The position numbers and the translations under genes are program-made. From Escherichia phage SP27: DNA of 64,000 nucleotides. The DNA lies in sequence record LC494302.1, one strand, 5' to 3'. Shown in pieces: positions 39,669-51,686 of this stretch (position 1 is the first letter of the stretch; the number at the start of each line of letters is the position of its first letter). Under the pieces are notes generated by a model. That model was given only the letters and a program-made list of their open reading frames with translations, was not told the origin of the DNA and ran no database searches.

Positions 39669-39688
39669 TATAACCTGGAGTAATAAAA

Positions 39689-39919: not shown

Positions 39920-39949
39920 GCAGTTTACAAATCTTTACAATTGCCGGTA

Positions 39950-39978
39950 TTGACTTATTTTGTCAGTACTGGCATAAT
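39950..39978 (+). promoter_or_regulatory. sigma70-like promoter
   Basis: TTGACT-17-CATAAT, leader box follows about 25 nt downstream. Confidence 0.45.
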
Positions 39979-40002
39979 GTATTCATTGGCAGATAAGCCG
40001 TA

Positions 40003-40030
40003 GCCCATAGGGTGCGGGAGTGTATCTATA
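40003..40030 (+). promoter_or_regulatory. conserved leader box AGCCCAYAGGGTGC..GTGTATCTA
   Basis: one of 7 copies, each about 20-25 nt after a promoter -10. Confidence 0.4.
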
Positions 40031-40169
40031 GAAAAAGTAGTTTAGTATAGTTACAATTGTGCACCCGGTGGGTTAGCTGTTGTCATGGGGTATATTATGC
40101 CAGTACTTGATAATGCTGTCAATACTTTTTTTTTAATATTCAGTACTGAAAACTATTTTTAAAAAGTAC

Positions 40170-40320
40170 TTGCAAACTATGTTTAAAGGCGTATAATGTT
40201 TTACATCAGGACGGGGAACGAAATAAGTAACTTCCCGTTAAGTAGCCCAGGAGTAAGGCACACGAAAAACTCCCCTGATAAAATAGTTTGACAATTGTTT
40301 TTAAAAGCGTATAATACTTA
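40170..40320 (+). promoter_or_regulatory. dual-promoter cassette with structured leader (copy 1)
   Basis: TTGCAA/TATAAT, then about 70-nt element ATCAGGACGGGGAACG..ACTCCCCTGAT, then TTGACA-16-TATAAT; about 90% identical to 51146..51292. Confidence 0.55.
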
Positions 40321-40347
40321 CATCAACTACTGAATGAGGGTTACAAA

Positions 40348-40959
40348 ATGAAAACTATCACTACTACTACTTATGTTATGGCTTTTTCTGAATTGAACGC
40401 AGAACAACAAACGTCAGCTATCGAACTGGTTCGGGAACGTGAAAAAAACTTAAACGATGATTATTTTTCTGAAAGTGAAATTGAATACTATAAAGAAACA
40501 GTACTACCGGAATATGGCATTAATGACGCTGAAATACAATTCAGTGGCTTTTGGTCCCAGGGTGACGGTGCATCAATCAGTACTGACCACGTTGACGCAG
40601 TGAAGTTTTTACGCAAGGTAAGAGCATTAACTAAGTATCGCTCAATCCGTCACTTGCTGAATGAAGATGATTTGGCGATGAGTGTAAAGCGTTCGCACTC
40701 CCACTACTCGCATGAGAATACTGTAAGCGGGTACATTGAATCGGCTTACACTGATTTAACCGCAAAACAAGAAACGTTAGTTAATGAGCTTGAGGAACTA
40801 CTCACTGAAACTATTCGTGAATTATCCCGCAAGTTGTACCGTGATTTAGAGAATGCATATGAGGATCAATTCACTACTGAAAACATTACGGCACTGATTG
40901 AGGGTAACGAATATCAATTCAATGTTATTGATGGAGTAGTAGAATCAATCGAATATTAA
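40348..40959 (+). CDS. hypothetical acidic protein (203 aa)
   Basis: TTGACA/TATAAT promoter and GAGGG RBS upstream. Confidence 0.6.
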   Translation: MKTITTTTYVMAFSELNAEQQTSAIELVREREKNLNDDYFSESEIEYYKETVLPEYGINDAEIQFSGFWSQGDGASISTDHVDAVKFLRKVRALTKYRSIRHLLNEDDLAMSVKRSHSHYSHENTVSGYIESAYTDLTAKQETLVNELEELLTETIRELSRKLYRDLENAYEDQFTTENITALIEGNEYQFNVIDGVVESIEY

Positions 40960-40971
40960 TTTAAAAAGTAC

Positions 40972-41034
40972 TTGCAAACTAAGTTTAAAAGCGTATAATA
41001 CTTTATATCGAGGCGGGGAGTGGTTCCCCGCTCA
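40972..41034 (+). promoter_or_regulatory. PeSL cassette
   Basis: TTGCAA-16-TATAAT + hairpin GGCGGGGAGTGGTTCCCCGCTC. Confidence 0.65.
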
Positions 41035-41049
41035 AACGAGGATTTAAAA

Positions 41050-41289
41050 ATGGCTAGTACTAAAACTTACAACGGACACAAAAACAAAACTCATTGGAAT
41101 GTAAGCCTTTGGATTAATAACGGTGAGTCATTGTATCGGCTTGCTCAAAGTTGCATCGCACAAAGTAGAACTAAAGATATTGCTGCGGAATGTATGTACC
41201 GCAGATTAAAAGCCAACGGTACTACTACAACGCCGGACGGCTTTAAGTATAGCACTACTGCGATCCGTGCTGCAATGGTTGGAATGTAA
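41050..41289 (+). CDS. hypothetical protein, family C (paralog of 39009..39248)
   Basis: PeSL + GAGGA RBS before ATG 41050. Confidence 0.65.
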   Translation: MASTKTYNGHKNKTHWNVSLWINNGESLYRLAQSCIAQSRTKDIAAECMYRRLKANGTTTTPDGFKYSTTAIRAAMVGM

Positions 41290-41346
41290 TATTCAGTACT
41301 GAGATAATGGCGGGAACTATTACCCGCCTTTACTGAGGGTTATCTA

Positions 41347-41634
41347 ATGAGTAAAGTAATAAAGTACAATGTGTTAAGCAAATCATTGTCTATCAGTGAA
41401 TGCACCGATGGTTTTTGGATGTACGATGAAACGCGTGGCATGAATTTAGCTATGCGTGCAAAAACTGCTGAGGCGGCGTATATTCAAGCACTGGAATACT
41501 ACCAGGAACGTTTGAAGGAAGTAGAAGAAGATTATAAAAGCCTCAAAGCGAAAGTAGATCATTTCGTCGGTCAATTCGTGGAAGACAACGACGAGGACGG
41601 GCACTACTGCGACCGTTGCGGATCTTACAGTTAA
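41347..41634 (+). CDS. hypothetical protein
   Basis: hairpin then GAGGG RBS; 95 aa, C-terminal CDRC. Confidence 0.55.
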   Translation: MSKVIKYNVLSKSLSISECTDGFWMYDETRGMNLAMRAKTAEAAYIQALEYYQERLKEVEEDYKSLKAKVDHFVGQFVEDNDEDGHYCDRCGSYS

Positions 41635-41651
41635 GTACTAAGGATTATATA

Positions 41652-41864
41652 ATGAGTGATTTAATTGAACGTATCAAAGAGCTTGAAGAAAAAGAATTGC
41701 AGTTGATCGGGTTACGGAATAAAGTATTCCATGATTTAGGTGGCTTTATTAATGCCTGGGATAGTGGCGATCCTGATGCGTTACCTGCTAACCGCCAGGC
41801 GATGATCAATGATGTGCGTGGTGTCTTTGATTATGTTTTAAAAGTACTAGACACTAAGCAATAA
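41652..41864 (+). CDS. hypothetical protein
   Basis: AAGGA RBS before ATG 41652. Confidence 0.5.
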   Translation: MSDLIERIKELEEKELQLIGLRNKVFHDLGGFINAWDSGDPDALPANRQAMINDVRGVFDYVLKVLDTKQ

Positions 41865-41925
41865 AGGCGTATAATACTTTATATTGGTACTGACAAACAT
41901 TATAAGCGATGCAGGAGCTTTAATC

Positions 41926-42111
41926 ATGACAACATTATCTGAGGTTATCCGCGATCAAGCTGCAAAGGCTGGAATGACTGTTATCAATGTAGGGATCAAG
42001 ATTGAGATCTCCCCTAACGAGTTGCAAGGGATTCCCGATCCTACTAGCTGGGATCGTGCTGGGCGAATGATGAGTAATGCTTCATTACTGGACGGTACAA
42101 AATTTAATTAA
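41926..42111 (+). CDS. hypothetical protein
   Basis: AGGAG RBS before ATG 41926. Confidence 0.5.
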   Translation: MTTLSEVIRDQAAKAGMTVINVGIKIEISPNELQGIPDPTSWDRAGRMMSNASLLDGTKFN

Positions 42112-42118
42112 AAAGTAC

Positions 42119-42180
42119 TTGCAATTAGTTTTCAGTACTGTATAATGGTTTACATCAAAGGGAGAAATGGTTCTCCCTGG
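42119..42180 (+). promoter_or_regulatory. PeSL cassette
   Basis: TTGCAA-16-TATAAT + hairpin GGGAGAAATGGTTCTCCC. Confidence 0.65.
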
Positions 42181-42196
42181 TAATGAGGAAAATACA

Positions 42197-42418
42197 ATGG
42201 CTAATATCACTACTCTTTCCCAACTGGAAGCACTGGTTAAATCTATGCGGGAACATGCCGACAAAATCGGCGTACAAGATCCAGCCGTTTGCTTCTGCGA
42301 CGAATTGAATGATGATACACTGGTAATAGCAGAAGTCCAGGACGTTTCTAACTATTCCTCGCGTTACACTGGCGGCGTAGCAAATAAAGGTGACTTCTGT
42401 TTATACCTTACAAAATAA
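42197..42418 (+). CDS. hypothetical protein
   Basis: PeSL + GAGGA RBS before ATG 42197; followed by hairpin terminator. Confidence 0.6.
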   Translation: MANITTLSQLEALVKSMREHADKIGVQDPAVCFCDELNDDTLVIAEVQDVSNYSSRYTGGVANKGDFCLYLTK

Positions 42419-42421
42419 CAA

Positions 42422-42452
42422 CGCGGGGAGATAATAACTCCCCGTTACTTTT
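42422..42452 (+). terminator. rho-independent terminator
   Basis: CGGGGAGATAATAACTCCCCG + TTACTTTTT. Confidence 0.6.
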
Positions 42453-42586
42453 TCAGTACTGAATCATTTAATAGACGGATCTCGGCACCCGGTGGGTTAG
42501 TGACTGTTTCGTCTTGATGTAGTAATTATGCCAGTACTGGATGCACTTGTCAACAACTATTTTTCAAATACTTTTTATTAAAATAC

Positions 42587-42645
42587 TTGCAATTAGTTTT
42601 TAAACGCGTATAATGTTTTGCATAGGGGGAGCGGTTCCCCTGGTA
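42587..42645 (+). promoter_or_regulatory. PeSL cassette
   Basis: TTGCAA-16-TATAAT + hairpin GGGGGAGCGGTTCCCC. Confidence 0.65.
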
Positions 42646-42661
42646 ACTAAGGAATAATAAA

Positions 42662-42898
42662 ATGCTTGAACAAATCAAATCAACGTCTGCGAATGTAACG
42701 GGAACGGTTGTACACTTTACTAGTGATGAATCGCGGGGCGTTCCCTATTGTGCTGTACATGTAAACACTGATGGCAACTACTGGTTTACGGTTTACGGAT
42801 CATATTCATTTGGACGGCCAGGGCATCAAAAAATTCTGGATAAAGTACAACCAACGGGTAAAAATATCACTGCCGAAATGTTTTATAAAAAATCATAA
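42662..42898 (+). CDS. hypothetical protein
   Basis: PeSL + AAGGA RBS; 78 aa. Confidence 0.6.
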   Translation: MLEQIKSTSANVTGTVVHFTSDESRGVPYCAVHVNTDGNYWFTVYGSYSFGRPGHQKILDKVQPTGKNITAEMFYKKS

Positions 42899-42903
42899 AG
42901 TAC

Positions 42904-42965
42904 TTGCAATTAGTTTTTAGTACTGTATAATATTTTACATCGCAAGGGGAAACGGTTTCCCCTGG
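42904..42965 (+). promoter_or_regulatory. PeSL cassette
   Basis: TTGCAA-16-TATAAT + hairpin GGGGAAACGGTTTCCCC. Confidence 0.65.
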
Positions 42966-42982
42966 TAACTAAGGATAATCAA

Positions 42983-43282
42983 ATGAAAATTGCAATCATC
43001 GCCCTGGCTTTATCTGTTTCCTCTTTCGCTGTTAATGCGTCGTTAGATGTAAGTAGTGAAAAATTCATTCAGTGCACTGTTGCAATGACCGATGAAAGAA
43101 CTGGCGAGATTGTATTAAAGGATTTAGAGATCCAGCCGGAAGCATTTAAAAACGGCCCGTTCCATGAAGAAGACGAAAACGGTAGCACGACAATTTATTA
43201 TGATGCCAGTTCCAAGCGTGGATCGGTCACTGTAATGGATACTGAGAAAGTAACACACACAGGCGTTATTAATTGCCGTTGA
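42983..43282 (+). CDS. hypothetical secreted protein
   Basis: PeSL + AAGGA RBS; signal peptide MKIAIIALALSVSSFAVNA. Confidence 0.6.
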   Translation: MKIAIIALALSVSSFAVNASLDVSSEKFIQCTVAMTDERTGEIVLKDLEIQPEAFKNGPFHEEDENGSTTIYYDASSKRGSVTVMDTEKVTHTGVINCR

Positions 43283-43303
43283 TAGATACTACGGGGTAAC
43301 ATC

Positions 43304-43534
43304 ATGACTAAGCGAATTGTTTTACTTAACGAAAGCAGTACTACACAACTACTTAACGCCGTGCATTATGATATTGAAACGAGCGTTAATCTTATCAGTA
43401 CTGTAGTACTGTTGGACACTGGAAAGGTCGCCAATGATAAAGCGATTGCAGGTATATTAACGGATCTTGAGCCTGGTAGCAGTGCACCCATAACGTTAAA
43501 TGGTAAAGTGTTTAATATTTTACTCACTGATTAA
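43304..43534 (+). CDS. hypothetical protein
   Basis: GGGG RBS; 76 aa; followed by hairpin terminator. Confidence 0.55.
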   Translation: MTKRIVLLNESSTTQLLNAVHYDIETSVNLISTVVLLDTGKVANDKAIAGILTDLEPGSSAPITLNGKVFNILLTD

Positions 43535-43540
43535 GTACAT

Positions 43541-43568
43541 AGCCCACCAGGTGGGCTTTTTTGTTTTT
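43541..43568 (+). terminator. rho-independent terminator
   Basis: AGCCCACCAGGTGGGCT + TTTTTGTTTTT. Confidence 0.7.
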
Positions 43569-43616
43569 ATAGTATCGTAGTACTGAGATACTTTGAAAAT
43601 AGTTTTAAGAAAGTAG

Positions 43617-43700
43617 TTGACATTACCACAGAAAAGCGTAGAATGTATTACATCAAGACGGGGAGCACTAAGTAGACCGCCAGTAAGTCGAACGAAAAAC
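43617..43700 (+). promoter_or_regulatory. promoter + divergent structured leader
   Basis: TTGACA-16-TAGAAT then ACATCAAGACGGGGAGC.. element partly similar to the 40200/51180 leader. Confidence 0.4.
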
Positions 43701-43767
43701 TGGACACGTCGAGAAAACTTTGATACACTAATAAACGTAAACTAAACTTTAATTGAGGATTTATAAA

Positions 43768-44250
43768 ATGGCTAATGTAAAATCATTCATCAAAGCACTG
43801 GTAGCAAATGAAACTAACGTCGCGGCTGAGATCCTGGCTGAACTGGATAACGATACCATGAAAGCGGTACGCAATAATTTTAACATCGCGTACAGTACTG
43901 CGAAAGAACTACAAGCAAATAAAGCGGCAGAAATTGAAGCGGCAAAGGCGGCCCGTGAAGCAGAACTACAAGCAACAATCGAAAGTATCCAGGCGGCGGT
44001 GTCTGGATTGGATCTGGAAGTGGTTGTGGAAATGGCACATAAAGCCCTGGCGGTTAAGTATGGTGAAGATAAGCCAGAATCTAAACCTAAAAAATGGATT
44101 CAAGAACGTGTTACTGTAGTACTTGATAACGGGGAAGAACATATGATTCCTGTACGCGGTAACTGCATTGCGGTAGTACTGGACGCTATCAAAGAAAGCG
44201 GTATGACTCGCGAGGAATGGATCGAAGCTCATCGCAAAGTTGAAGCATAA
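43768..44250 (+). CDS. hypothetical protein with Ala/Glu-rich helical segment
   Basis: GAGGA RBS before ATG 43768; followed by hairpin terminator. Confidence 0.6.
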   Translation: MANVKSFIKALVANETNVAAEILAELDNDTMKAVRNNFNIAYSTAKELQANKAAEIEAAKAAREAELQATIESIQAAVSGLDLEVVVEMAHKALAVKYGEDKPESKPKKWIQERVTVVLDNGEEHMIPVRGNCIAVVLDAIKESGMTREEWIEAHRKVEA

Positions 44251-44271
44251 CAATTAAAGTACTGAATCACT

Positions 44272-44300
44272 AGCCCACCTTAAACAGTGGGCTTTTTTGT
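44272..44300 (+). terminator. rho-independent terminator
   Basis: AGCCCACC..AGTGGGCT + TTTTTGTG. Confidence 0.65.
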
Positions 44301-44309
44301 GTCTGTAGT

Positions 44310-44410
44310 ATTCCAGTCCACCAGCACCGCCTAGAATCGATTCTAACGCATTAAACTGATTATCTGATGCATTGCCCTAGCTGGTGGCGTGAAGGTCGTT
44401 AGAATGCGAT
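44310..44410. repeat. nested imperfect inverted repeats
   Basis: CCACCAGC..GCTGGTGG and AGAATCGATTCTAACGC / CGTTAGAATGCGATT arms. Confidence 0.4.
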
Positions 44411-44452
44411 TGAGAGCGTTTAAAGTATTTTGCAAAAAGTAATAAAAAGTAC

Positions 44453-44515
44453 TTGCACGATTAAGAGATTAGCGTATAATGTTTTACATCGAGAGGGGGA
44501 AACGGTTCTCCTTCC
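44453..44515 (+). promoter_or_regulatory. PeSL cassette
   Basis: TTGCAC..TATAAT + hairpin GAGGGGGAAACGGTTCTCCTTC. Confidence 0.6.
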
Positions 44516-44535
44516 AAATCAAAGGAATCAAAACA

Positions 44536-44763
44536 ATGGCTATTATCATTACTCGCGTATCTGGTACTACTGGCAACGAACAAGTAGTTGCAGTCATTAC
44601 CAACAAGGAAGGTGCGGAATTGCAAAATGCAATGAATACCTGGGCCGTTAATGAGTTCGGTCAGTGGGCAAGTGTAGCATACATTGAAACCTATCAAGTG
44701 CCGTCGATTAGTTTAACTGATTTGGGCGTTGAGCGTATCCTTTGCCTGGATGAATTAAATTAA
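44536..44763 (+). CDS. hypothetical protein
   Basis: PeSL + AAGGAA RBS before ATG 44536. Confidence 0.6.
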   Translation: MAIIITRVSGTTGNEQVVAVITNKEGAELQNAMNTWAVNEFGQWASVAYIETYQVPSISLTDLGVERILCLDELN

Positions 44764-44771
44764 AAAAGTAC

Positions 44772-44831
44772 TTGCAAAGTAAATCGAATAAAGTATAATA
44801 CATTACATCAAGGGGAGAAATGGTTCTCCCC
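44772..44831 (+). promoter_or_regulatory. PeSL cassette
   Basis: TTGCAA-16-TATAAT + hairpin GGGGAGAAATGGTTCTCCCC. Confidence 0.65.
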
Positions 44832-44848
44832 ACTACAAGGAAACTAAA

Positions 44849-44992
44849 ATGAAAACTTGTCAATGTGGTCAGAAATCTATTACGGGTTTAAAGCGGGGCG
44901 TTGCTCTTTGCCAGTACCATTATAATTTACAAGTATGGGGTAAAGAATGGGCCGACCAGGTGGAAGCAGCAAAGAAAGCAAAAAGTAAGTAA
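44849..44992 (+). CDS. hypothetical small Cys-containing protein (47 aa)
   Basis: PeSL + AAGGAAA RBS; ORF MKTCQCGQKSITGLKRGVALCQYHYN...; below track cutoff. Confidence 0.45.
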   Translation: MKTCQCGQKSITGLKRGVALCQYHYNLQVWGKEWADQVEAAKKAKSK

Positions 44993-45002
44993 AAATATTA
45001 TC

Positions 45003-45040
45003 ACAGTACTATTGACATAGTTTGATAGTACTGGCATAAT
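45003..45040 (+). promoter_or_regulatory. palindromic-operator promoter
   Basis: AGTACTATTGACATAGTTTGATAGTACT: TTGACA-17-CATAAT flanked by AGTACTAT/ATAGTACT inverted repeat. Confidence 0.55.
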
Positions 45041-45073
45041 AGATTTTATCAAGACAACTAAGAGGAAATTAAA

Positions 45074-45418
45074 ATGGCTAACATCAATACTATAGCAGCA
45101 CAAAATATCAACCTGTCTTCTGTTGAAGTTGTACACATTGCCGCCCGGCGTTGGTTCCAGGCGTCTTATGGTAATACTTATTTCTCTTTAACGGTAGATG
45201 TTGAAATCAATGGCGAATTTATTGAAGTAGTAAACGTGCCGTTCCAATATGGCTACGGGGATCATTTTGACACTGTAGCAATGGAAGAATTTAGCAAGGT
45301 TATTAATATGGAAGGTAAAGAGTTTTTACGCGGTTCTTATCTTTCCCGTTTTTGCCGTGATAATAATATCACTGTTTATAGTTCGGTAACTGATGTTAAA
45401 CGCAAAAAAGATCTTTAA
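45074..45418 (+). CDS. hypothetical protein, family B (paralog of 51957..52280)
   Basis: palindromic promoter + AGAGGAA RBS; shared GNTY..YGYG..DVKRKKD. Confidence 0.6.
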   Translation: MANINTIAAQNINLSSVEVVHIAARRWFQASYGNTYFSLTVDVEINGEFIEVVNVPFQYGYGDHFDTVAMEEFSKVINMEGKEFLRGSYLSRFCRDNNITVYSSVTDVKRKKDL

Positions 45419-45498
45419 TTAGCTTTACTTTATGCAGATACTTTGATATAGTGTCTGCATAGGGGAAAGAAATTAAATTAACTTAAGAGGATAGTATA

Positions 45499-45768
45499 AT
45501 GAAAAATATCAGTACTTTAATCGATGCAGGTACACATGTTCGGCGGTCTATGGTTGCAACCAGTACTACAAAACAAGTAGCGAGCGGTTATCTTGTATTT
45601 GTGCACGATGGAAAACTCCTGGAACGTTCAATCAATTTTGATGTTAAAAACAATTGCCGTTTTATTATCTTTAAGCGTGAGCAATATAAAATTGATTTAC
45701 CAGCAAAGCCCATTAGTGGGGCGTACAACGTGCAATCAATGTTTGAACGTCAACCATACACCTATTAA
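45499..45768 (+). CDS. hypothetical protein
   Basis: AGAGGA RBS; 89 aa. Confidence 0.55.
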   Translation: MKNISTLIDAGTHVRRSMVATSTTKQVASGYLVFVHDGKLLERSINFDVKNNCRFIIFKREQYKIDLPAKPISGAYNVQSMFERQPYTY

Positions 45769-45819
45769 TCAAAACATCGTTAGCGGTCGATTCAGGCCGC
45801 TTATATTGGGGATTATACC

Positions 45820-46092
45820 ATGAACGTTAATCAAGTACTGAATGAGATCGAAAGCATCATTAAACCGATGAAGCGTACTGATGCTATGTTAACACCGGAA
45901 GAATGCCGCCTTTATGAGCGTTACAGCGTCGAACAAGTCCAGGCAATGGCTATGGCTACCCCAGCCGTTAAACCGCCTGAGAATGCGTTACAGGACGTTA
46001 CAGGGGATTATATCATCAATCCAGTACTAGGGAAGATGGCTGCAATCACCGAAGATCAACAAGACTACTTAAGCCAGTACTTAAAAGGTTAA
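45820..46092 (+). CDS. hypothetical protein
   Basis: GGGGA RBS; 90 aa; contains 20-nt stretch also found in intergenic DNA near 48430. Confidence 0.55.
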   Translation: MNVNQVLNEIESIIKPMKRTDAMLTPEECRLYERYSVEQVQAMAMATPAVKPPENALQDVTGDYIINPVLGKMAAITEDQQDYLSQYLKG

Positions 46093-46097
46093 TTAAT

Positions 46098-46307
46098 ATG
46101 CTTACTGTACAGGATAAGATCGACATCTTAAAGGTTAATATGTATGTGATTGATGCAGTACCTGGTAAAGTATTTGCATACGATGATAGTACTGTAAGCG
46201 ATTTCTACTATAGCCAGGCCGTGGGGGATCTTTCTGTACAGTCGGTTATTGAAAACGTAGTTAATGCAGCGTATGAGCATTTACTTTCAAATAGTACTTG
46301 CAATTAG
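46098..46307 (+). CDS. hypothetical protein
   Basis: AAAGG RBS; 3' end overlaps next PeSL promoter. Confidence 0.5.
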   Translation: MLTVQDKIDILKVNMYVIDAVPGKVFAYDDSTVSDFYYSQAVGDLSVQSVIENVVNAAYEHLLSNSTCN

Positions 46308-46357
46308 TTTTTAAACGCGTATAATGTTTTACATGAAGGGGAGAAATGATTCTCCCC
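46298..46357 (+). promoter_or_regulatory. PeSL cassette
   Basis: TTGCAA-16-TATAAT + hairpin GGGGAGAAATGATTCTCCCC. Confidence 0.65.
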
Positions 46358-46376
46358 ACTAATTAAGGAATATGAA

Positions 46377-46523
46377 ATGAAAGCATCAAAAAAGAGTACT
46401 AACAAGAAAGCACGTTCAACCTTAGATGGGGTATTCCCTTTACGTTTCGTTGATGAAGTGGTTTCCTACCCGCCTGGCCTTACTCCTGAGATGGTAGAAA
46501 GTTTGCGTAAATCTAAAAAATAG
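46377..46523 (+). CDS. hypothetical small basic protein (48 aa)
   Basis: PeSL + AAGGAA RBS 6 nt before ATG 46377; below track cutoff. Confidence 0.45.
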   Translation: MKASKKSTNKKARSTLDGVFPLRFVDEVVSYPPGLTPEMVESLRKSKK

Positions 46524-46526
46524 TAC

Positions 46527-46587
46527 TTGCAATTAGTTTTTAGTACTGTATAATGTTTTACATAGAGGGGGGAAATGGTTCTCCCCA
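46527..46587 (+). promoter_or_regulatory. PeSL cassette
   Basis: TTGCAA-16-TATAAT + hairpin GGGGGGAAATGGTTCTCCCC. Confidence 0.65.
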
Positions 46588-46604
46588 ATAACAGGAGAAA
46601 CAAA

Positions 46605-46757
46605 ATGAAACAATACAACGCTCGGTTTGATGTTACTATCGGCAACGGTAAAGGTCAATTCTCTTTCAGTACTCGACGCAGTTATACAGAAAACTTCCTG
46701 CGTAATTGTGCACTGACCGCCGCACAAATTAAACATTACTTTCAGGCTAAAAAATGA
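46605..46757 (+). CDS. hypothetical small protein (50 aa)
   Basis: PeSL + AGGAGAAA RBS before ATG 46605. Confidence 0.5.
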   Translation: MKQYNARFDVTIGNGKGQFSFSTRRSYTENFLRNCALTAAQIKHYFQAKK

Positions 46758-46843
46758 GATCATTAGCTTATTACAGTTCGGCCCTGGTCGGTGCATTGAT
46801 CGCGGCGTTGTTAGTAACCTATCTATTCTTTATGGTGATTTAA
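46754..46843 (+). CDS. possible tiny hydrophobic peptide (29 aa)
   Basis: ATGA overlap with upstream stop; MRSLAYYSSALVGALIAALLVTYLFFMVI. Confidence 0.3.
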   Translation: MRSLAYYSSALVGALIAALLVTYLFFMVI

Positions 46844-46981
46844 ATGAATCCTAACGGTATAATTTACAGTACTCCTAAAACGAAAGCAGACAAGGTAAAC
46901 GCTAAAAAAGCGAAAGTAAAGGAGTACATCAAGCAAGGCATGACGCGAAAGGCGGCGATTCTAAAAGCTAAAAATAAATGA
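46844..46981 (+). CDS. possible small basic protein (45 aa)
   Basis: TAAATG junction; Lys-rich; followed by terminator. Confidence 0.35.
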   Translation: MNPNGIIYSTPKTKADKVNAKKAKVKEYIKQGMTRKAAILKAKNK

Positions 46982-46984
46982 AAA

Positions 46985-47012
46985 AAGTGGTTGACTTCGG
47001 TCAGCCATTTTG
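46985..47012 (+). terminator. terminator/promoter module
   Basis: GTGGTTGACTTCGGTCAGCCATTTTGCTATTATAT. Confidence 0.6.
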
Positions 47013-47045
47013 CTATTATATATTCATTGAGAGATAGCTCACTAG

Positions 47046-47076
47046 CCCACAGGGTGCAGGAGTGTATCTATTGTAT
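47046..47076 (+). promoter_or_regulatory. conserved leader box
   Basis: AGCCCACAGGGTGCAGGAGTGTATCTATTG followed by TATAAT. Confidence 0.4.
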
Positions 47077-47113
47077 AATGTTTGAGTACTTAAAACTATT
47101 TTTAAAAAAGTAC

Positions 47114-47172
47114 TTGCAAACTATCTCAATAAGCGTATAATGTTTTACATCGCAAGGGGAAACGGTTTCCCC
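47114..47172 (+). promoter_or_regulatory. PeSL cassette
   Basis: TTGCAA-16-TATAAT + hairpin GGGGAAACGGTTTCCCC. Confidence 0.65.
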
Positions 47173-47192
47173 TAGTAATAAGGAAACAAATC

Positions 47193-47534
47193 ATGACTAT
47201 CTCAATTGCTCAATCTAACTTTGAAAACGAAATCATCGCCCAGGCACTGCGTTTAAATGATGGTCGGGCCGAAATCAATTACGGTTTCAATTCAGGCGGT
47301 TGTGAAAAATATCAGTACTTTATAACTGCTGATGGCTGTGTCCTGGGCATCAATACAGTTATTGTAAACATCCAAAAAATTAATTTCAATGATCCAGACG
47401 ATAGCCAGTTTTACATCACTGGCGTAGACGTGAACTATGAGGATGACTCACTAACTGATGATCACACTGGCGAGCGGTTAGAAAGTGCATACGGTGAAGA
47501 TGATTATCAGTCCGGTCCAGAAGATTTCGAATAA
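47193..47534 (+). CDS. hypothetical acidic protein
   Basis: terminator/promoter, leader box and PeSL upstream; AAGGAAA RBS. Confidence 0.6.
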   Translation: MTISIAQSNFENEIIAQALRLNDGRAEINYGFNSGGCEKYQYFITADGCVLGINTVIVNIQKINFNDPDDSQFYITGVDVNYEDDSLTDDHTGERLESAYGEDDYQSGPEDFE

Positions 47535-47548
47535 TATAAAAAAATAGT

Positions 47549-47608
47549 TTGACAATAGATTATAGTACTGTATAATGTTTTACATGAAGGGGAGAATAGT
47601 TCTCCCCA
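47549..47608 (+). promoter_or_regulatory. PeSL cassette
   Basis: TTGACA-16-TATAAT + hairpin GGGGAGAATAGTTCTCCCC. Confidence 0.65.
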
Positions 47609-47627
47609 CTAACAGAGAGAAAACAAA

Positions 47628-47840
47628 ATGGCTAATATCCGGTCGAAATTAAAAAATGCAAAACAAGTTTTATTTTCAGATCATGAATACTTTAATAAAG
47701 ATATTACAGGAGTTACAAGTATCAAGGAAGTAAAAGAAAAAACCGGCGTTTTGTGTGATGTGCGATTAGTTGGAACATTTGGGAATAACGTGCTATATCG
47801 CTGCGGTGATTACAATTTTACACTGACTATCATTAACTAA
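47628..47840 (+). CDS. hypothetical protein
   Basis: PeSL + GAGAGAAA RBS; 70 aa. Confidence 0.6.
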   Translation: MANIRSKLKNAKQVLFSDHEYFNKDITGVTSIKEVKEKTGVLCDVRLVGTFGNNVLYRCGDYNFTLTIIN

Positions 47841-47861
47841 AAATATTATCACAGTACTATC

Positions 47862-47897
47862 AAAGCTATTGACAATGATTGATAGTACTGGCATAAT
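47862..47897 (+). promoter_or_regulatory. palindromic-operator promoter
   Basis: AGTACTATCAAAGCTATTGACAATGATTGATAGTACT + CATAAT. Confidence 0.55.
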
Positions 47898-47932
47898 AAC
47901 TTTTATCAACTACACTACTAAGGAATTAAAAA

Positions 47933-48112
47933 ATGGCTATCATCGCAAAAACTGAAATCGTTGGTCTGGATTCTATCATCATGACGTTTGAAGATCAAAA
48001 AGGTATGTATGTAGTTTCCTATGGTGATTATGTTCGGGAGTATGAAACGGTAGACGAAGCCTTTGAAAGTTATATTCGCCAGGTGAATAAAGCATACGAC
48101 GACTACCGCTAA
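47933..48112 (+). CDS. hypothetical small protein (59 aa)
   Basis: palindromic promoter + AAGGAA RBS; below track cutoff. Confidence 0.45.
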   Translation: MAIIAKTEIVGLDSIIMTFEDQKGMYVVSYGDYVREYETVDEAFESYIRQVNKAYDDYR

Positions 48113-48130
48113 AATATATTACCAGTACTA

Positions 48131-48167
48131 TTAAATCTATTGACAATGTTTGATAGTACTGTATAAT
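48131..48167 (+). promoter_or_regulatory. palindromic-operator promoter
   Basis: AGTACTATTAAATCTATTGACAATGTTTGATAGTACT + TATAAT. Confidence 0.55.
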
Positions 48168-48211
48168 AAGTTTTATAAACAGTAGTTAACTTAACCTAAG
48201 AGAGAAATAAA

Positions 48212-48355
48212 ATGATCGCACTGGATTCATTCATCGACGCAGTACTGGCAAAAACTGGCGAGGATCTGACCGCAGAACAATACGCGATGATCGAACAATG
48301 TCAACAGGACGGTAAATCGGTGAAAGATACTGTTAAGATTATCCGCAAGATGTAA
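48212..48355 (+). CDS. hypothetical small protein (47 aa)
   Basis: palindromic promoter + AGAGAGAAA RBS; followed by hairpin terminator. Confidence 0.45.
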   Translation: MIALDSFIDAVLAKTGEDLTAEQYAMIEQCQQDGKSVKDTVKIIRKM

Positions 48356-48360
48356 GATTA

Positions 48361-48392
48361 TAGCCCACTGGTTAACGCTGGTGGGCTTTAAT
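48361..48392 (+). terminator. rho-independent terminator
   Basis: AGCCCACTGG..GCTGGTGGGCT + TTT. Confidence 0.55.
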
Positions 48393-48460
48393 TCATCACC
48401 CTATACAATGCCAGTACTCAACCGTTTATCTCGTTAGAATGCGTTACAGGACGTTTAACA

Positions 48461-48658
48461 ATGATTAGCATGAAATCAGTACAAAAACAAATAGAAACAT
48501 TATCAAAAATTAAACGTAAACAGTACTCCTTAGAATATACAATCAATGGTAACTATCATCTAATGAAAGAGAATAATTTTATAGTCATTGATGAATCATT
48601 GCAAATCATTAGTATAGTACTGAAAGCATTAATCAATGACAGAAAAAAATTAAAATAA
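48461..48658 (+). CDS. hypothetical protein
   Basis: track ORF 65 aa; no convincing RBS. Confidence 0.35.
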   Translation: MISMKSVQKQIETLSKIKRKQYSLEYTINGNYHLMKENNFIVIDESLQIISIVLKALINDRKKLK

Positions 48659-48662
48659 TCTA

Positions 48663-48691
48663 TTGACAATATCATCCAGTACTGGCATAAT
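48663..48691 (+). promoter_or_regulatory. sigma70-like promoter
   Basis: TTGACA-17-CATAAT, leader box downstream. Confidence 0.45.
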
Positions 48692-48717
48692 ACTTACACC
48701 AAGACGAGAACGTCACT

Positions 48718-48746
48718 AACCCATAGGGTGCACAAATGTAACTGTA
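48718..48746 (+). promoter_or_regulatory. conserved leader box
   Basis: AACCCATAGGGTGCACAAATGTAACTG + TATAAT. Confidence 0.4.
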
Positions 48747-48749
48747 TAA

Positions 48750-48800
48750 TATTGATCAAAAAATGATCTGATCAATACTTGATCAATTTGCGTAAAGTAG
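48750..48800. other. GATC/TGATCA cluster in 330-bp ORF-free spacer
   Basis: TTGATCAAAAAATGATCTGATCAATACTTGATCAA: 4 GATC within about 40 bp. Confidence 0.4.
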
Positions 48801-48989
48801 TATAATTCTATGCAGTTGGTTAGACGAAAGGTTATGATTAGTAGTGCAAGTGTATAAAAATTTTCATGGTGTATCGTTCCGCACATATGGGGATGAATAT
48901 GTGGTATCATGTGGATTGGAAAAAGTAAGAACAAGTAATATTATTGTCGCATTACAGTACTATAGTATTTTTATAATGAGGTTAAAATA

Positions 48990-49247
48990 ATGGCTGTAGG
49001 ATTCGCGAAAGATGGGGCCGAACAAGACGAGATTAACGCAGTGATTCAGGCTGCCGTTAACCACGCTAGAAAGCAAATTAACGCACAAATAGAATCACTG
49101 ATACATTGCCTCGACTGCGGCGATATAATCCCTGAGAAACGACGCCAGGCCGTTAAGGGATGTAAGTACTGCATAACTTGCCAGGAGGATCATGATAGTA
49201 CTTTTAAACGTCCCCCGCGTAATTGTTGGCATAGATCTATGAGATAA
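48990..49247 (+). CDS. TraR/DksA-family C4 zinc-finger protein
   Basis: CLDCGDIIPEKRRQAV..CKYCITCQ matches the C4 finger pattern of TraR/DksA; GAGG RBS. Confidence 0.65.
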   Translation: MAVGFAKDGAEQDEINAVIQAAVNHARKQINAQIESLIHCLDCGDIIPEKRRQAVKGCKYCITCQEDHDSTFKRPPRNCWHRSMR

Positions 49248-49252
49248 AAAGT

Positions 49253-49281
49253 ATTGACAGTACTGAAAGATAGTTTATAAT
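49253..49281 (+). promoter_or_regulatory. sigma70-like promoter
   Basis: TTGACA-17-TATAAT upstream of GNAT-like gene. Confidence 0.55.
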
Positions 49282-49310
49282 ATTTTATATCTTAACTGAG
49301 GATTGAAATC

Positions 49311-49667
49311 ATGGGAATACAACATATCACGCGTACTACTGACAATGGCGAGATCACTGGCTATCAAGTACAGGGCAAAGTAGCACAATTGCAGTACTGG
49401 TTTGTTAAACGTGGAATCATTGCACCGGATCTTGATTATGACCGTGTAGCGTTTATTGATTCTCTTTATGTTGATCCTGATAGTCGGGGCAATGGTGAAG
49501 GTAACGAATTAATGAATGCCTTTATTGATGCCGCCGATGATTCAGATTGTATCATCTTAGAATGCGATACGGGAGAAGATAACGCCTTTAATCTTAAAGA
49601 ATGGTACGAAGGTTTCGGATTCGAGGTATTGATAGATAGTGAATATCCTATCATGATTTTATCATAG
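49311..49667 (+). CDS. GNAT-family acetyltransferase-like protein
   Basis: TTGACA/TATAAT promoter, GAGGA RBS; motif A-like RGNGEGNELM and motif B-like WYEGFGF. Confidence 0.55.
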   Translation: MGIQHITRTTDNGEITGYQVQGKVAQLQYWFVKRGIIAPDLDYDRVAFIDSLYVDPDSRGNGEGNELMNAFIDAADDSDCIILECDTGEDNAFNLKEWYEGFGFEVLIDSEYPIMILS

Positions 49668-49668
49668 T

Positions 49669-49728
49669 ACTTGCATTTAGTTTTCAGTACTGTTATAGTA
49701 CTTACATCAAGGGGAAACATCTTCCCCT
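49669..49728 (+). promoter_or_regulatory. PeSL-like cassette (degenerate -10)
   Basis: TTGCAT.. + hairpin AGGGGAAACATCTTCCCCT. Confidence 0.45.
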
Positions 49729-49745
49729 ACTAAGAGGAAATGAAA

Positions 49746-49934
49746 ATGGAAAACTTATCAAGTATTTTAGTACAAGATGATTTCGGTAATCCTGGAAGTG
49801 CTATCATTGTTCGGGGCAATAAAGCAACGTTTGTTATTGCTGGTGGACCCGTACAGCGTAGCATTAAAAATAATGCTGTTACCATTAATAATGTACGCTA
49901 TCGCTTAGATAAAGAATTAATTCATAAACTGTAA
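49746..49934 (+). CDS. hypothetical protein
   Basis: PeSL-like hairpin + GAGGA RBS 7 nt before ATG 49746. Confidence 0.5.
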   Translation: MENLSSILVQDDFGNPGSAIIVRGNKATFVIAGGPVQRSIKNNAVTINNVRYRLDKELIHKL

Positions 49935-49961
49935 TATTAATTTAATAGAGGATAACAATAA

Positions 49962-50285
49962 ATGTACATTCATACTACTATCACAAAGGAAGTCCGTTGC
50001 CAGTTCGAAAGTATTCCGGGCGTATGTTTCATCACTGGTACGTTTTCCCCTGGTGATCGTGATAATCCAGTACTGTTACAATTACGCCATCCATCATGGG
50101 ATAAAGCATTTGATCTACCGTTGAATGAATTCGCAACTACTGCTGAAAAGTACATTAAAAATATTCGCGAGAATGATCGACTATTCATTAATGCTTTTAG
50201 TGATTCCGCGTTAAGCGAGATCCACGGCGTATTGGTTGCAATCATGGAATCAATGCAGAAAACTAAATTCAAACAAGGTGAATAA
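49962..50285 (+). CDS. hypothetical protein
   Basis: AGAGGA RBS; 107 aa. Confidence 0.55.
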   Translation: MYIHTTITKEVRCQFESIPGVCFITGTFSPGDRDNPVLLQLRHPSWDKAFDLPLNEFATTAEKYIKNIRENDRLFINAFSDSALSEIHGVLVAIMESMQKTKFKQGE

Positions 50286-50291
50286 AAACTA

Positions 50292-50352
50292 TTGACAATA
50301 GATTATAGTACTGTATAATAAGTTACATGAAGGGGAGAAATGATTCTCCCCA
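50292..50352 (+). promoter_or_regulatory. PeSL cassette
   Basis: TTGACA-17-TATAAT + hairpin GGGGAGAAATGATTCTCCCC. Confidence 0.65.
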
Positions 50353-50368
50353 CTGAGAGGAAAGAAAA

Positions 50369-50581
50369 ATGCAAGGTCAACTAATCGTTCGTAAATGGTC
50401 TGATACTAACGAAAAACCGTGGGATGTACAATACATCGGACCGGATGGGGTATCACGTTATCAGCCTGGCGTAACGCATAGTACTGAGCAATATGCCGCC
50501 GCTCACCGCGAACGCCTGTTAGAATCCATGAAACAGGGATTCTGTGAAAAATTCATTCAAGATCATTGGCTGAAAGATTAA
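50369..50581 (+). CDS. hypothetical protein
   Basis: PeSL + GAGAGGAAA RBS; 70 aa. Confidence 0.6.
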   Translation: MQGQLIVRKWSDTNEKPWDVQYIGPDGVSRYQPGVTHSTEQYAAAHRERLLESMKQGFCEKFIQDHWLKD

Positions 50582-50598
50582 TAGAAGGAGTACAGCTT

Positions 50599-50691
50599 AT
50601 GCAAATGAATCCGATGATTATTGTTTTAGCTGTACTTATGATCATTCATGCAATTGTAGAAGTATTAACGCAATCAGGAGTAATAAAATGA
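50599..50691 (+). CDS. possible tiny hydrophobic peptide (30 aa)
   Basis: AAGGAG RBS; MQMNPMIIVLAVLMIIHAIVEVL... Confidence 0.35.
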   Translation: MQMNPMIIVLAVLMIIHAIVEVLTQSGVIK

Positions 50692-50861
50692 TTCAAGTAG
50701 AATTATCAGTACTGAAAGATCTGTTTTATCGGTTAGGTACTACTGGAGAGTATCCTAAAAGTGATACCGCAAAACTTTTTGTATCACTCGATTTATGGCA
50801 ACGCGAACAATTAGTAATGTCCTGGCGTAAAGGTAAAGCAGATAGCGAGGTGAAAGCATGA
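50688..50861 (+). CDS. hypothetical small protein (57 aa)
   Basis: ATGA overlap with upstream stop; GGAG nearby. Confidence 0.4.
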   Translation: MIQVELSVLKDLFYRLGTTGEYPKSDTAKLFVSLDLWQREQLVMSWRKGKADSEVKA

Positions 50862-51007
50862 AAGAATTCTTATTCGAAGTAGTGTTTCAAGGTGTCGGTA
50901 GTAATCAATTGATTCGCTCAAGTGGTTACAATGTTAACCAGGCATGGAATAACATTAAACAAATGTACCCGAACGCTATCACATATCGCAACCCAAAAGA
51001 AGTTTAA
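50858..51007 (+). CDS. hypothetical small protein (49 aa)
   Basis: ATGA overlap; followed by terminator. Confidence 0.4.
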   Translation: MKEFLFEVVFQGVGSNQLIRSSGYNVNQAWNNIKQMYPNAITYRNPKEV

Positions 51008-51016
51008 AAATAATTG

Positions 51017-51048
51017 AAAAAGGGATTGACTCCGGTCAGTCCCTTTGC
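51017..51048 (+). terminator. terminator/promoter module (GGGATTGACTCCGGTCAGTCCC type)
   Basis: AAAAAGGGATTGACTCCGGTCAGTCCCTTTGCTATTATAT. Confidence 0.65.
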
Positions 51049-51061
51049 TATTATATACGCA

Positions 51062-51092
51062 TAGAAACAAATCAGCCCACCGGGTGCATAAA
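51062..51092 (+). promoter_or_regulatory. conserved leader box
   Basis: AGCCCACCGGGTGCATAAATGTATCTATTG. Confidence 0.4.
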
Positions 51093-51145
51093 TGTATCTA
51101 TTGTTTGCTGGTGGCTAGTACTGAAAACTATTTTTAAAAAAGTAC

Positions 51146-51292
51146 TTGCATTGTACTTAGAATCAAGTATAATGTTTTACATCAGGACGGGGAACGAAAC
51201 AAGTAACCCCGTTAAGTAGTCCAGGAGTAAGACATACGAAAAACTCCCCTGATAAAATAGTTTGACAATAGAAAGTAAACGAGTATAATACT
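51146..51292 (+). promoter_or_regulatory. dual-promoter cassette with structured leader (copy 2)
   Basis: about 90% identical to 40170..40320 with compensatory changes in the hairpin (CGGGG..CCCCG). Confidence 0.55.
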
Positions 51293-51322
51293 TACATCAA
51301 CCACTGATAAGGAAACATAAAA

Positions 51323-51598
51323 ATGCGGATTCTACTGACAGCTAACGAAATCGAACAAGTACTGACTACTAACCTGGAAGACTGGAAACGTGAAGCAGAT
51401 ATCCAGGCGGTTCAATGGTTAAATGATAAGTTAACGCCGGATGACTTAAGCAAGATTGTAGATCCTCAATTCTACGAAGATATCCACGACACCGCGTTAA
51501 GCGTCGAGGATGTACTAGATAAGCACTTTATTGATACTGATTTGCAGGTTTACGGTCGTAAAAACTTTATCACTATTCACGACATTTACAATAATTAA
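51323..51598 (+). CDS. hypothetical acidic protein
   Basis: duplicated dual-promoter cassette upstream; AAGGAAA RBS. Confidence 0.6.
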   Translation: MRILLTANEIEQVLTTNLEDWKREADIQAVQWLNDKLTPDDLSKIVDPQFYEDIHDTALSVEDVLDKHFIDTDLQVYGRKNFITIHDIYNN

Positions 51599-51601
51599 GT
51601 A

Positions 51602-51665
51602 TTGACAAAGTATCTTAGTACTGTATAATAGTTTACATCGAGTGAGGGGAAACGGTTCCCCTCCT
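51602..51665 (+). promoter_or_regulatory. PeSL cassette
   Basis: TTGACA-16-TATAAT + hairpin GAGGGGAAACGGTTCCCCTC. Confidence 0.65.
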
Positions 51666-51686
51666 AACAAAGAGAGAGAAATAAAA

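Follow-up and report, generated by a model that had tools for sequence, protein, structure and literature searches.

A repeated transcribed element in the early region of phage SP27

The early region of Escherichia phage SP27 contains a repeated cassette of about 150 nt, and the question it raises is which part of the repeat is conserved and whether that part acts as DNA or as RNA. The window analyzed here (64,000 nt of record LC494302.1) comes from an Asteriusvirus-type jumbo coliphage, whose early region it represents, and is 98% identical to PBECO4/121Q/G17-type jumbo phages. It carries about 40 rightward sigma-70 promoter cassettes, in which a promoter is followed by AUCGAG, a GC hairpin, a Shine-Dalgarno sequence and ATG. 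The window also holds a second family of non-coding mini-cassettes, each consisting of a promoter plus 50 nt.

Copies A (40170-40320), B (51146-51292) and C (43617-43724) were all found where the initial annotation had placed them, and copy C was indeed a diverged third copy, but it extends to approximately 43724 and not 43700. Searches of the window with a 17-nt probe and with a degenerate probe of 33 nt both returned exactly these three sites (0.08 and 0.00 matches expected by chance, respectively). A covariance model of the core, run on both strands of the window with filters off, identified the same sites on the plus strand, scoring 55.3 bits for copy B (51212-51251), 54.1 bits for copy C (43668-43707) and 53.9 bits for copy A (40238-40277), with the runner-up at 10 bits.

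All features of the copies described below lie on the plus strand. In copy A, promoter P1 (40170-40197; TTGCAA and TATAAT with 16-nt spacing) precedes a predicted +1 at 40205, placed by the same 7-nt distance to the -10 hexamer as at T7 A1. The 75-nt element (40205-40279), defined by sequence, fold, covariance-model match and covariation, is followed by a second promoter, P2 (40288-40315; TTGACA and TATAAT with 16-nt spacing), which matches the consensus at 12 of 12 positions and leads through a short unstructured leader into a gene of unknown function (40348-40959; phrog_5162). Copy B has the same layout, with P1 at 51146-51173 (TTGCAT and TATAAT, 16-nt spacing), an element of 73 nt at 51181-51253 (sequence, fold and model match) and P2 at 51262-51289, the predicted promoter of the gene at 51323-51598. 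At copy C, a terminator-like hairpin (43541-43557) lies just before the promoter (43617-43644; TTGACA and TAGAAT, 16-nt spacing), the element (43652-43724) is a variant without hairpin 1, and it directly forms the 5' UTR of the gene at 43768-44250. The downstream genes differ at each copy, and all belong to PHROGs of unknown function.

The initial annotation had described copies A and B as about 90% identical. Over the whole segment of approximately 150 nt, identity was 83% (129/155); it was 93% in the transcribed element and 66-75% in the two promoter stretches (hexamers and spacer). Both promoters flanking the element are strong consensus matches. The idea of a dual promoter as the conserved unit was not supported by sequence, as the promoters diverge faster than the element and other phages supply their own promoters and downstream genes. 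Sequence comparison places the conservation in the transcribed element and not in the promoters. A promoter and the element are followed by the promoter, leader and gene of the next cassette, and it is to this next cassette that the second promoter belongs.

The element is predicted to fold into covarying helices that flank conserved single-stranded motifs

The element consists of a closing helix beginning at the predicted +1, hairpin 1, a single-stranded UAAGUAG motif and hairpin 2, which combines a 4-5-bp stem with a nearly invariant 16-nt loop, UAAGNCNNACGAAAAA. In copy A, the closing helix ATCAGG/CCTGAT pairs 40205-40210 with 40274-40279 (sequence and MFE fold) and encloses hairpin 1 (40211-40217/40232-40238), UAAGUAG (40239-40245) and hairpin 2 (stem 40250-40253/40270-40273; loop UAAGGCACACGAAAAA, 40254-40269). 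The corresponding positions in copy B are 51181-51186/51248-51253 for the closing helix, 51187-51192/51207-51212 for hairpin 1, 51213-51219 for UAAGUAG and 51224-51227/51244-51247 for hairpin 2. The closing helix reported in the initial annotation was thus present in both copies, and it appeared in their MFE folds. Copy C retains UAAGUAG (43669-43675) and hairpin 2 (43680-43683/43700-43703) within a GACG/CGTC pairing (43657-43660 with 43707-43710); an outer AUCAA/UUGAU pairing (43652-43656/43720-43724) was recognized by eye and is absent from the MFE fold. MFE z-scores were -1.9, -3.7 and -0.7 for copies A, B and C, respectively.

The difference in hairpin 1 between copies A and B, previously described as compensatory, preserves pairing but involves no double change (a G-C pair becomes G.U and one A-U pair is added). 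In contrast, hairpin 2 of copy C differs from that of A and B by two true compensatory flips (GGAG/CTCC to CCAG/CTGG). Covariation also extended beyond the copies in the window. In a set of 27 distinct variants drawn from several families of phages, double changes were seen at four of five pairs in hairpin 2 (CG/GC, CG/GC/UA, UA/AU and GC/GU/AU/UA), and the filter used to select variants did not include the fifth pair; near-identity of sequences within phage groups keeps the number of independent events modest, at about 6-8. In this alignment 94.8% of hairpin-2 cells were paired, none of 500 shuffles reached the score, and slid controls collapsed. The version in L155 provides a further stem, GUCAG/CUGAC.

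Hairpin 1 adjoined UAAGUAG (0-1 nt) in 45 of 52 distinct contexts, compared with 23% of shuffles, and occurred in 22 different stem versions. It has this position in copies A and B but not in copy C and its relatives, which have the closing helix only. Closing helices of differing sequence were found in A/B, C, LTH01, Munch, L184, L155 and L133/L164, and RNAalifold predicted both hairpins independently. The alignment of the family core contained 17 invariant columns, and its conserved motif reads as single-stranded (U)AAGUAG, NCNN, and a hairpin with the loop (A)UAAGNCNNA[C/A]GAAMAA. A strand-asymmetry test of wobble pairs (G.U versus A.C tolerance) did not tell the strands apart. Taken together, sequence, folds and covariation support the proposal of a structured RNA element behind a strong early promoter.

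The element is shared with T7 and other phages of Enterobacterales

Members of the family were identified in T7, T3, other Autographiviridae, Vequintavirinae, Justusliebigvirus and other jumbo phages; T7 and at least five other enterobacterial phage groups carry the element. A T7 query matched 491 phage records, and a BLAST search with copy C matched phiA1122, YpP and 13a at 86-91% over 35-36 nt. Further carriers include Drulisvirus, Kayfunavirus, LIMEzero, Salmonella phage Munch, Erwinia phage Hallingskeid and metagenomic jumbo contigs; in IMG/VR a loose pattern gave mostly chance matches and a tighter one was used instead. The variant without hairpin 1 was also present in EJP2, Hallingskeid and LTH01. 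Justusliebigvirus and Vequintavirinae carry an element that is approximately 90% identical, with their own promoters upstream and different genes downstream, and in Justusliebigvirus muut the element, P2 and the gene that follows copy B are found together behind a muut-type promoter. The element was always in sense orientation to an upstream host-type promoter, lying within about 20-110 nt of it in the window and in phages with annotated host promoters (T7/13a A1/A2, EcoDS1 and LIMEzero). The next promoter followed after 2 to about 45 nt; in LIMEzero-type phages no consensus second promoter was recognized, and the LIMEzero record annotates a putative one approximately 80 nt downstream. In our reading, horizontal transfer has carried the family between unrelated virulent phages that infect Enterobacterales.

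The T7 homologue, at positions 536-586, is flanked by the A1 start (498) and the A2 -35 hexamer (589-594) and has the hairpin-2 stem strand CCUG and the loop ACGAAAAA. Hairpin 1, UAAGUAG and the loop of hairpin 2 are common to this segment and the element in the window, and a strong promoter follows in both. Unlike copies A and B, the T7 segment has no closing helix because its 5' end folds into a separate hairpin, and its element stem abuts the next -35 hexamer. The T7 A1-A2 segment carries no annotation as an RNA element, and A1-A3 have been described only as promoters from which the host polymerase pulls the genome in, a "non-coding internalisation signal" (PMC11863960).

By its sequence features, we file the element under the family of the T7-group A1-A2 inter-promoter segment. 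The window copies share with this family the loop motif, hairpin-2 compensation, hairpin 1 next to UAAGUAG (except in copy C) and a promoter-proximal sense position. A terminator-ended small RNA or attenuator would close with a GC hairpin and U tract, which was absent from the 3' side of all three copies, and the boxA adjoining a hairpin that marks nut/rrn leaders was absent from the early region of the window and seen next to the element only in LIMEzero/L133.

We could not find this family described in the literature and databases searched. Rfam 15 gave no match at the gathering score anywhere in the window, and relaxing the threshold to E values up to 10 gave only chance-level matches around copy A and the T7 leader; resemblances to pistol and hammerhead ribozymes and to guanidine riboswitches were unsupported by these scans. 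The element carries no annotation, and the literature searched (on Asteriusvirus, the early promoters and leader of T7, boxA and the element sequence) contained the T7 A1 region only as a template or "internalisation signal". No tRNA or tmRNA gene was found by scanning, and mimicry of tmRNA (UAGUCGCA..ACGAAAAC in ssrA) was rejected, as the model gave E. coli ssrA only 3.2 bits. Neither 5,426 complete E. coli genomes nor PLSDB plasmids contained a match to the element, and the 185,579 genomes of GTDB contained none to the pattern. A host or plasmid origin, an RNA anti-CRISPR (solitary repeat unit) and other mimicry of host sequence were rejected, as no similar sequence was found in these collections.

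A proposed 5' RNA domain of a read-through early transcript

The initial annotation had proposed a short RNA ending near the second promoter, possibly an attenuator. The sequence did not support this: terminator-like sites were absent from 40280-40347, 43704-43767 and 51254-51322, none was visible after the T7, Munch, LIMEzero and L155 versions, and the sequence directly 3' of the closing helix is AUAAAAUAGUUUGACA. As no terminator follows, the element would form the 5' domain of a read-through early transcript. Our preferred reading, to which we assign a probability of roughly 0.5, is that the repeat is an RNA domain of approximately 75 nt that occupies its own promoter slot and acts as RNA within such a transcript. 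Host RNA polymerase would transcribe the element from a near-consensus sigma-70 promoter, the predicted +1 A would be the first base of the closing helix, leaving the 5' end fully paired, and the helices would position the two conserved single-stranded motifs for a conserved host component. The effect on the carrier transcript or the polymerase may be one of processivity or read-through, as with put/nut-type leaders, or protection of early RNA; we infer this RNA-level action, its partner and its effect. Several observations sit less well with this reading: a strong promoter usually follows, so that many transcripts of the downstream genes lack the element, which is a poor fit to a role in cis; the T7-type A-tract lies at the position that an A2 UP element would take, where a DNA-level role could contribute; the copies in the window have no neighboring boxA; and the outcome of the strand-asymmetry test and the modest number of independent covariation events count here as well.

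The put RNA of phage HK022 is a cis-acting antiterminator RNA. It resembles the element in layout: a pair of neighboring stem-loops forms in the nascent RNA near an early promoter, in a phage that relies on the host polymerase. To our knowledge put is known only from relatives of HK022 and has no downstream promoter, whereas one usually follows the element. The boxB-boxA leaders of lambda nut and rrn resemble the element in that an early leader carries a hairpin whose loop is rich in A; in contrast to the GNRA-like pentaloop of nut/boxB, the loop of the element has 16 nt, and no N-like protein is implied. A boxA (CGCUCUUUA[A/U]ACAA) was found 20-40 nt after the element in LIMEzero/L133, and in T7 one lies in the same leader about 220 nt downstream. 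The early region of the window contained no boxA (CGCUCUUUAACAA), whether beside the three copies or elsewhere, and matches with up to two mismatches were not above chance.

The case for an RNA domain is its invariant loops, covarying helices and recurrence in unrelated phages, and these phages have nothing in common but the order of their hosts and a need for host polymerase to make their first transcripts. We propose, tentatively and at somewhat less than even odds, an unrecognized RNA family in the first transcripts of T7, T3, other Autographiviridae, rV5-like and phAPEC8-like myoviruses and several jumbo phages, maintained by horizontal transfer and selection because its invariant loops would bind a conserved factor of Enterobacterales as infection begins. 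Candidates would be the transcribing polymerase, the termination machinery, an RNase or an immune sensor. If true, take-over or anti-defence RNAs of phages would gain a new class, located within the most studied 100 nt of T7; a structured RNA domain in A1-A3, so far treated as promoters, would point to an undescribed common task in early infection. The early region of this jumbo phage would then be reread, with some promoter slots expressing RNAs and not proteins.

Alternative readings of the element

A stand-alone, trans-acting small RNA is a less likely reading that keeps an RNA function. Here P1 would produce a compact three-way-junction RNA of approximately 75 nt, released by processing in the A/U-rich stretch after the closing helix or, in T7, by RNase III further downstream. 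With its repeated UAAGU and ACGAAA motifs, this RNA would titrate a host protein or act as a decoy for it. The element does have its own strong promoter followed by a separate one for the next gene, like an independent gene slot; it moves between phages independently of its neighbors; its 5' end is fully paired; the hairpin-1 loop of copies A and B holds additional ACGAAA and UAAGUA motifs; and non-coding mini-cassettes of another family occur in the same window. However, intrinsic terminators were absent downstream of all copies in the window and in the relatives examined, and at copy C and in LIMEzero-type phages the element simply forms the first gene's 5' UTR.

We consider it improbable that the element works as DNA, whether as a protein-binding site, an UP-like enhancer of the downstream promoter or a conserved linker at which early cassettes of different phages recombine. 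Most lineages have a promoter after the element, and only 2 nt separate the end of the stem from the -35 hexamer in T7, T3 and Drulisvirus, which puts GAAAAAC in the proximal UP position; in T7-type phages the loop A-tract occupies the presumed A2 UP element (about -47 to -41). T7 A1 and the window phage also have cassette architecture and the initial transcribed sequence AUCGAG in common, and recombination could occur between such sequences. Against this, the distance to the next promoter varies over the range given above, with no recognized consensus second promoter in copy C or LIMEzero-type phages; compensatory double changes in three helices are unexpected for a binding site in duplex DNA; and the G+C-rich stems are unlike UP elements.

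A decayed cassette remnant (5' hairpin, Shine-Dalgarno AGGAG, start codon and lost ORF) or a tiny ORF (ACG AAA AAC TCC CCT GAT AAA ATA GTT TGA) with no RNA function of its own is suggested by the order hairpin, CCAGGAG, 8 nt and ACG in copies A and B, which mimics neighboring leaders such as that at 54994, but we rejected it as very improbable because other variants have CCAG, CCUG, CUUG or GUCAG in place of AGGAG with pairing kept, AUG, GUG and UUG starts are lacking, indels of 1-2 nt separate the variants, the frame after ACG differs in copy C and T7, and the loop is kept across at least five phage groups.

The repeated modules of early promoter and stem-loop in the window also look similar to the PeSL cassettes of T4, promoter-early stem-loop modules that flank small genes, are common to several phages and suit modular exchange. 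The element differs from these in being a specific conserved RNA domain with invariant loops, compared with a generic promoter/hairpin linker.

Structure and copies of the element in SP27

Copies A (40170-40320) and B (51146-51292) of the element and the diverged third copy C (43617-43724) were all confirmed in the window. The initial annotation had put A and B at about 90% identity; overall the figure was 83%, rising to 93% for the transcribed element and falling to 66-75% for the promoter stretches (hexamers plus spacer). The lower likeness of the promoters is at odds with the dual-promoter device proposed there, and argues that selection acts on the element and not on the dual-promoter unit. 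With the +1 set as at T7 A1, 7 nt past the -10, the A/B transcript begins with AUCAGG and its partner CCUGAU lies 64-69 nt downstream. The ATCAGG/CCTGAT closure with an internal hairpin was present as described, forming a closing helix that encloses hairpin 1 (ACGGGG(A)/(U)CCCCGU). Single-stranded UAAGUAG and four further bases separate hairpin 1 from hairpin 2, which has the stem GGAG/CUCC and the 16-nt loop UAAGRCAYACGAAAAA. Copy C is without hairpin 1; CCAG/CUGG forms the stem of its hairpin 2, and GACG and CGUC pair beyond it. No terminator-like site was identified downstream of copies A, B or C, so the element would be transcribed as the 5' domain of a longer RNA, and the suggested RNA end near the second promoter gave no evident attenuator.

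Covariation extended beyond the two copies considered in the initial annotation. Analysis of 27 distinct core variants revealed hairpin 2 to be paired in 94.8% of cells, with changes on both sides at four of its five pairs. The covariation score was reached by 0 of 500 shuffles, and pairing collapsed when the 3' partner was slid as a control. Stem versions included GGAG/CUCC, CCAG/CUGG, CCUG/CAGG and CUUG/CAAG, and a jumbo-type metagenomic contig (L155) carried a fifth, GUCAG/CUGAC. The collection filter demanded the inner four pairs; the outer pair was never filtered and occurred as G-C, G.U, A-U and U-A. A pattern without this demand found no recognisable homolog breaking the inner pairs, with two exceptions (an unverified genome carrying a deletion, and another with a loop insertion). 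Hairpin 1 occurred in 22 different stem versions and ended 0-1 nt 5' of UAAGUAG in 45 of 52 distinct contexts, compared with 23% of shuffles; RNAalifold predicted both hairpins from 16 T7-group sequences. A closing helix was present in several carriers, with sequences unrelated between them: AUCAGG/CCUGAU in A/B, GACG/CGUC in C, GACGG/CCGUC in LTH01, CGGC/GCCG in Salmonella phage Munch, GCGGC/GUCGC in a second jumbo-type contig (L184), CGGGG/CCCCG in L155, and AUCGAA or ACCGAA with UUCGGU in two LIMEzero-type phages (L133, L164). The invariant parts are single-stranded, namely AGUAG, the C right after it, UAAG, and A-G-A-A of the loop.

Distribution among phages

The region of the copies was 96-99% identical to the PBECO4/121Q/G17 group of jumbo coliphages (Asteriusvirus). 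The A/B form was also found, at about 90% identity, in Justusliebigvirus (muut, EmilieFrey, outra) and Vequintavirinae (A7_1, A73, A5-4), myoviruses of about 145 kb that are unrelated to the jumbo phage. In these, the element is preceded by their own promoters and followed by a promoter and different genes; in muut the promoter and gene past it are those at copy B. These own promoters and differing genes argue that the travelling unit begins at about +1 and stops just short of the next -35. The copy C core matched the T7-like phages phiA1122, YpP-Y and 13a (86-91% over 35-36 nt), the jumbo phages Munch, 7t3, fENko-Kae01 and Erwinia phage Hallingskeid, and LTH01.

The homologous T7 segment (536-586) reads CCGG-GGTCAA-CCGG, A, TAAGTAG, ACAG, CCTG-ATAAGTCGCACGAAAAA-CAGG. 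It falls between A1 and A2 (annotated starts 498 and 626), with the A2 -35 starting 2 nt past it. T7-type phages lack the closing helix and have an A-tract at the proximal UP position of A2. A T7 query matched 491 phage records, among them Teseptimavirus, T3-like phages, Kayfunavirus, Drulisvirus, and Klebsiella, Yersinia, Serratia, Citrobacter and Enterobacter podoviruses. IMG/VR added Pantoea phage LIMEzero and a relative (L164, L133), with the element in the first-gene leader and boxA 20-40 nt further on, and the two jumbo-type contigs (L155, L184). No match was detected in 5,426 E. coli genomes, 185,579 GTDB genomes or PLSDB plasmids. GenBank annotation under the matches was mostly no feature, the rest being automatically called hypothetical proteins. 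Extension of the family to T7 makes the finding more general than the initial annotation. It is also less specific: the interpretation given there is partly supported, for the structured element, and neither for a dual-promoter device nor for an evident attenuator.

Two carriers showed length changes. The muut element (2511-2577) is longer by a G in the 5' G-run and by a C in the distal C-run. This could reflect a paired change in support of an alternative helix between the two runs, or sequencing error in both homopolymers. Salmonella phage KE18 (L148, ~325-370) has a ~25-nt insertion within the hairpin-2 loop.

Rfam returned no family match, and in open-access text the sequence of the element was found only in papers using the T7 A1-A3 fragment as template, one of which terms it a "non-coding internalisation signal" (PMC11863960); a description in the older T7 literature is possible. 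In function, put and nut/boxA leaders come closest, but the window showed none of the sequence features that define them. Within the scope of open-access text, we therefore class the element as an early-leader RNA family without a previous description, the best-known member being the T7 A1-A2 segment.

Proposed role of the element

The invariant loops and covarying helices, the fixed sense position just 3' of host-type early promoters, and horizontal spread confined to phages of one host order point to an RNA whose helices would hold the loops and offer a pair of short motifs to a conserved component of the host at an early stage of infection. We favour, as an inference, an effect on the carrying transcript or polymerase, either put- or nut-like processivity/read-through or protection of early RNA. 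In copy C and LIMEzero the element is a plain 5' UTR; elsewhere the promoter of the next cassette follows 2 to about 45 nt past it. The main rival, put forward in the initial annotation, is a free small RNA released by processing; its gene-like slot, fully paired 5' end and, in A/B, the additional copies of the motifs in the loop of hairpin 1 are consistent with this, but there is no 3'-end signal of any sort. Compensatory changes in three helices, and a distance to the next promoter that varies, fit poorly with a role at the DNA level (UP-like or protein site, recombination linker), although the A-tract of T7-type phages may contribute at this level. A decayed leader or micro-ORF was rejected.

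The early region and neighbouring elements

The + strand from ~37.2 to 57 kb (37186-56864) carries about 40 near-consensus sigma-70 promoters/early cassettes. Most share a stereotyped order: an A/T-rich upstream element, AAAGTAC-TTGCAA or TTGACA, 16 nt, TATAAT, GTTTTAC, and ATCGAG as transcript start, followed by a GC hairpin (GGGGAA-N4-TTCCCC type), Shine-Dalgarno and ATG. The hairpin stands at the leader 5' end in almost every cassette. The initial transcribed bases (AUCGAGAG...) are those at T7 A1 (ATCGAGAGGGA), which together with the single architecture suggests a promoter-leader module common to unrelated coliphages. Where records annotate terminal repeats, the copies fall within the direct terminal repeat, at a distance of 3-14 kb from the left end. 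Records starting at the physical end, where copy A is at ~3.4 kb, would place the left end close to window position 36.8 kb. The surrounding sequence (~36700-37190) contains the short repeats GAATGATTCAGTACTGAT (x2) and AATTACCCCTT (x2), with no promoter before 37186.

A second family of non-coding mini-cassettes was found at 46975-47075, 51010-51110, 54002-54100 and 56258-56350, with looser copies at 39940-40040 and 48655-48760; one lies directly upstream of the copy B promoter, and one of the looser copies precedes copy A. The hairpin AAAGGGA-TTGACTCCGGTCAG-TCCCTTT, with GCTATTATAT after it, encloses the -35 of their promoter; downstream come a conserved transcribed segment of ~50 nt, with ...AGCCCAYMGGGTGCAGGAGTGTATCTATTG at its end, and the next promoter. 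The core CCCAYMGGGTGC occurs 10 times over both strands, compared with 0.2 expected, and also in Munch. Convergent promoters (+ strand 39950-39978, - strand 40122-40094) face each other across ~150 bp of non-coding DNA within a 430-nt gene-free stretch just upstream of copy A, each followed by one core copy (39950-40125).

Chi sites (GCTGGTGG) are enriched in the 64 kb: the + strand has 9 and the - strand 5, where about 1 on each would be expected. Of the nine + strand sites, eight cluster in the early region (44380, 48377, 49839, 51107, 53179, 54583, 56160, 56382), one of them between a mini-cassette and the copy B promoter. Munch and L184 have Chi in the spacer of the promoter next after their element. 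Distant from the early region, the - strand at 978-989 holds a perfect boxA-like dodecamer, GCTCTTTAACAA; sites with up to 2 mismatches were no commoner in the window than chance predicts, so it may mean nothing. Gene leaders past the elements of copy C (43735-43770), Munch (L017, 3730-3760) and L155 (5100-5137) share AAACUUUAA(G/U)(A/U)GAGGA, which we take to resemble the T7 gene 10 leader enhancer UUAACUUUAAGAAGGAG.
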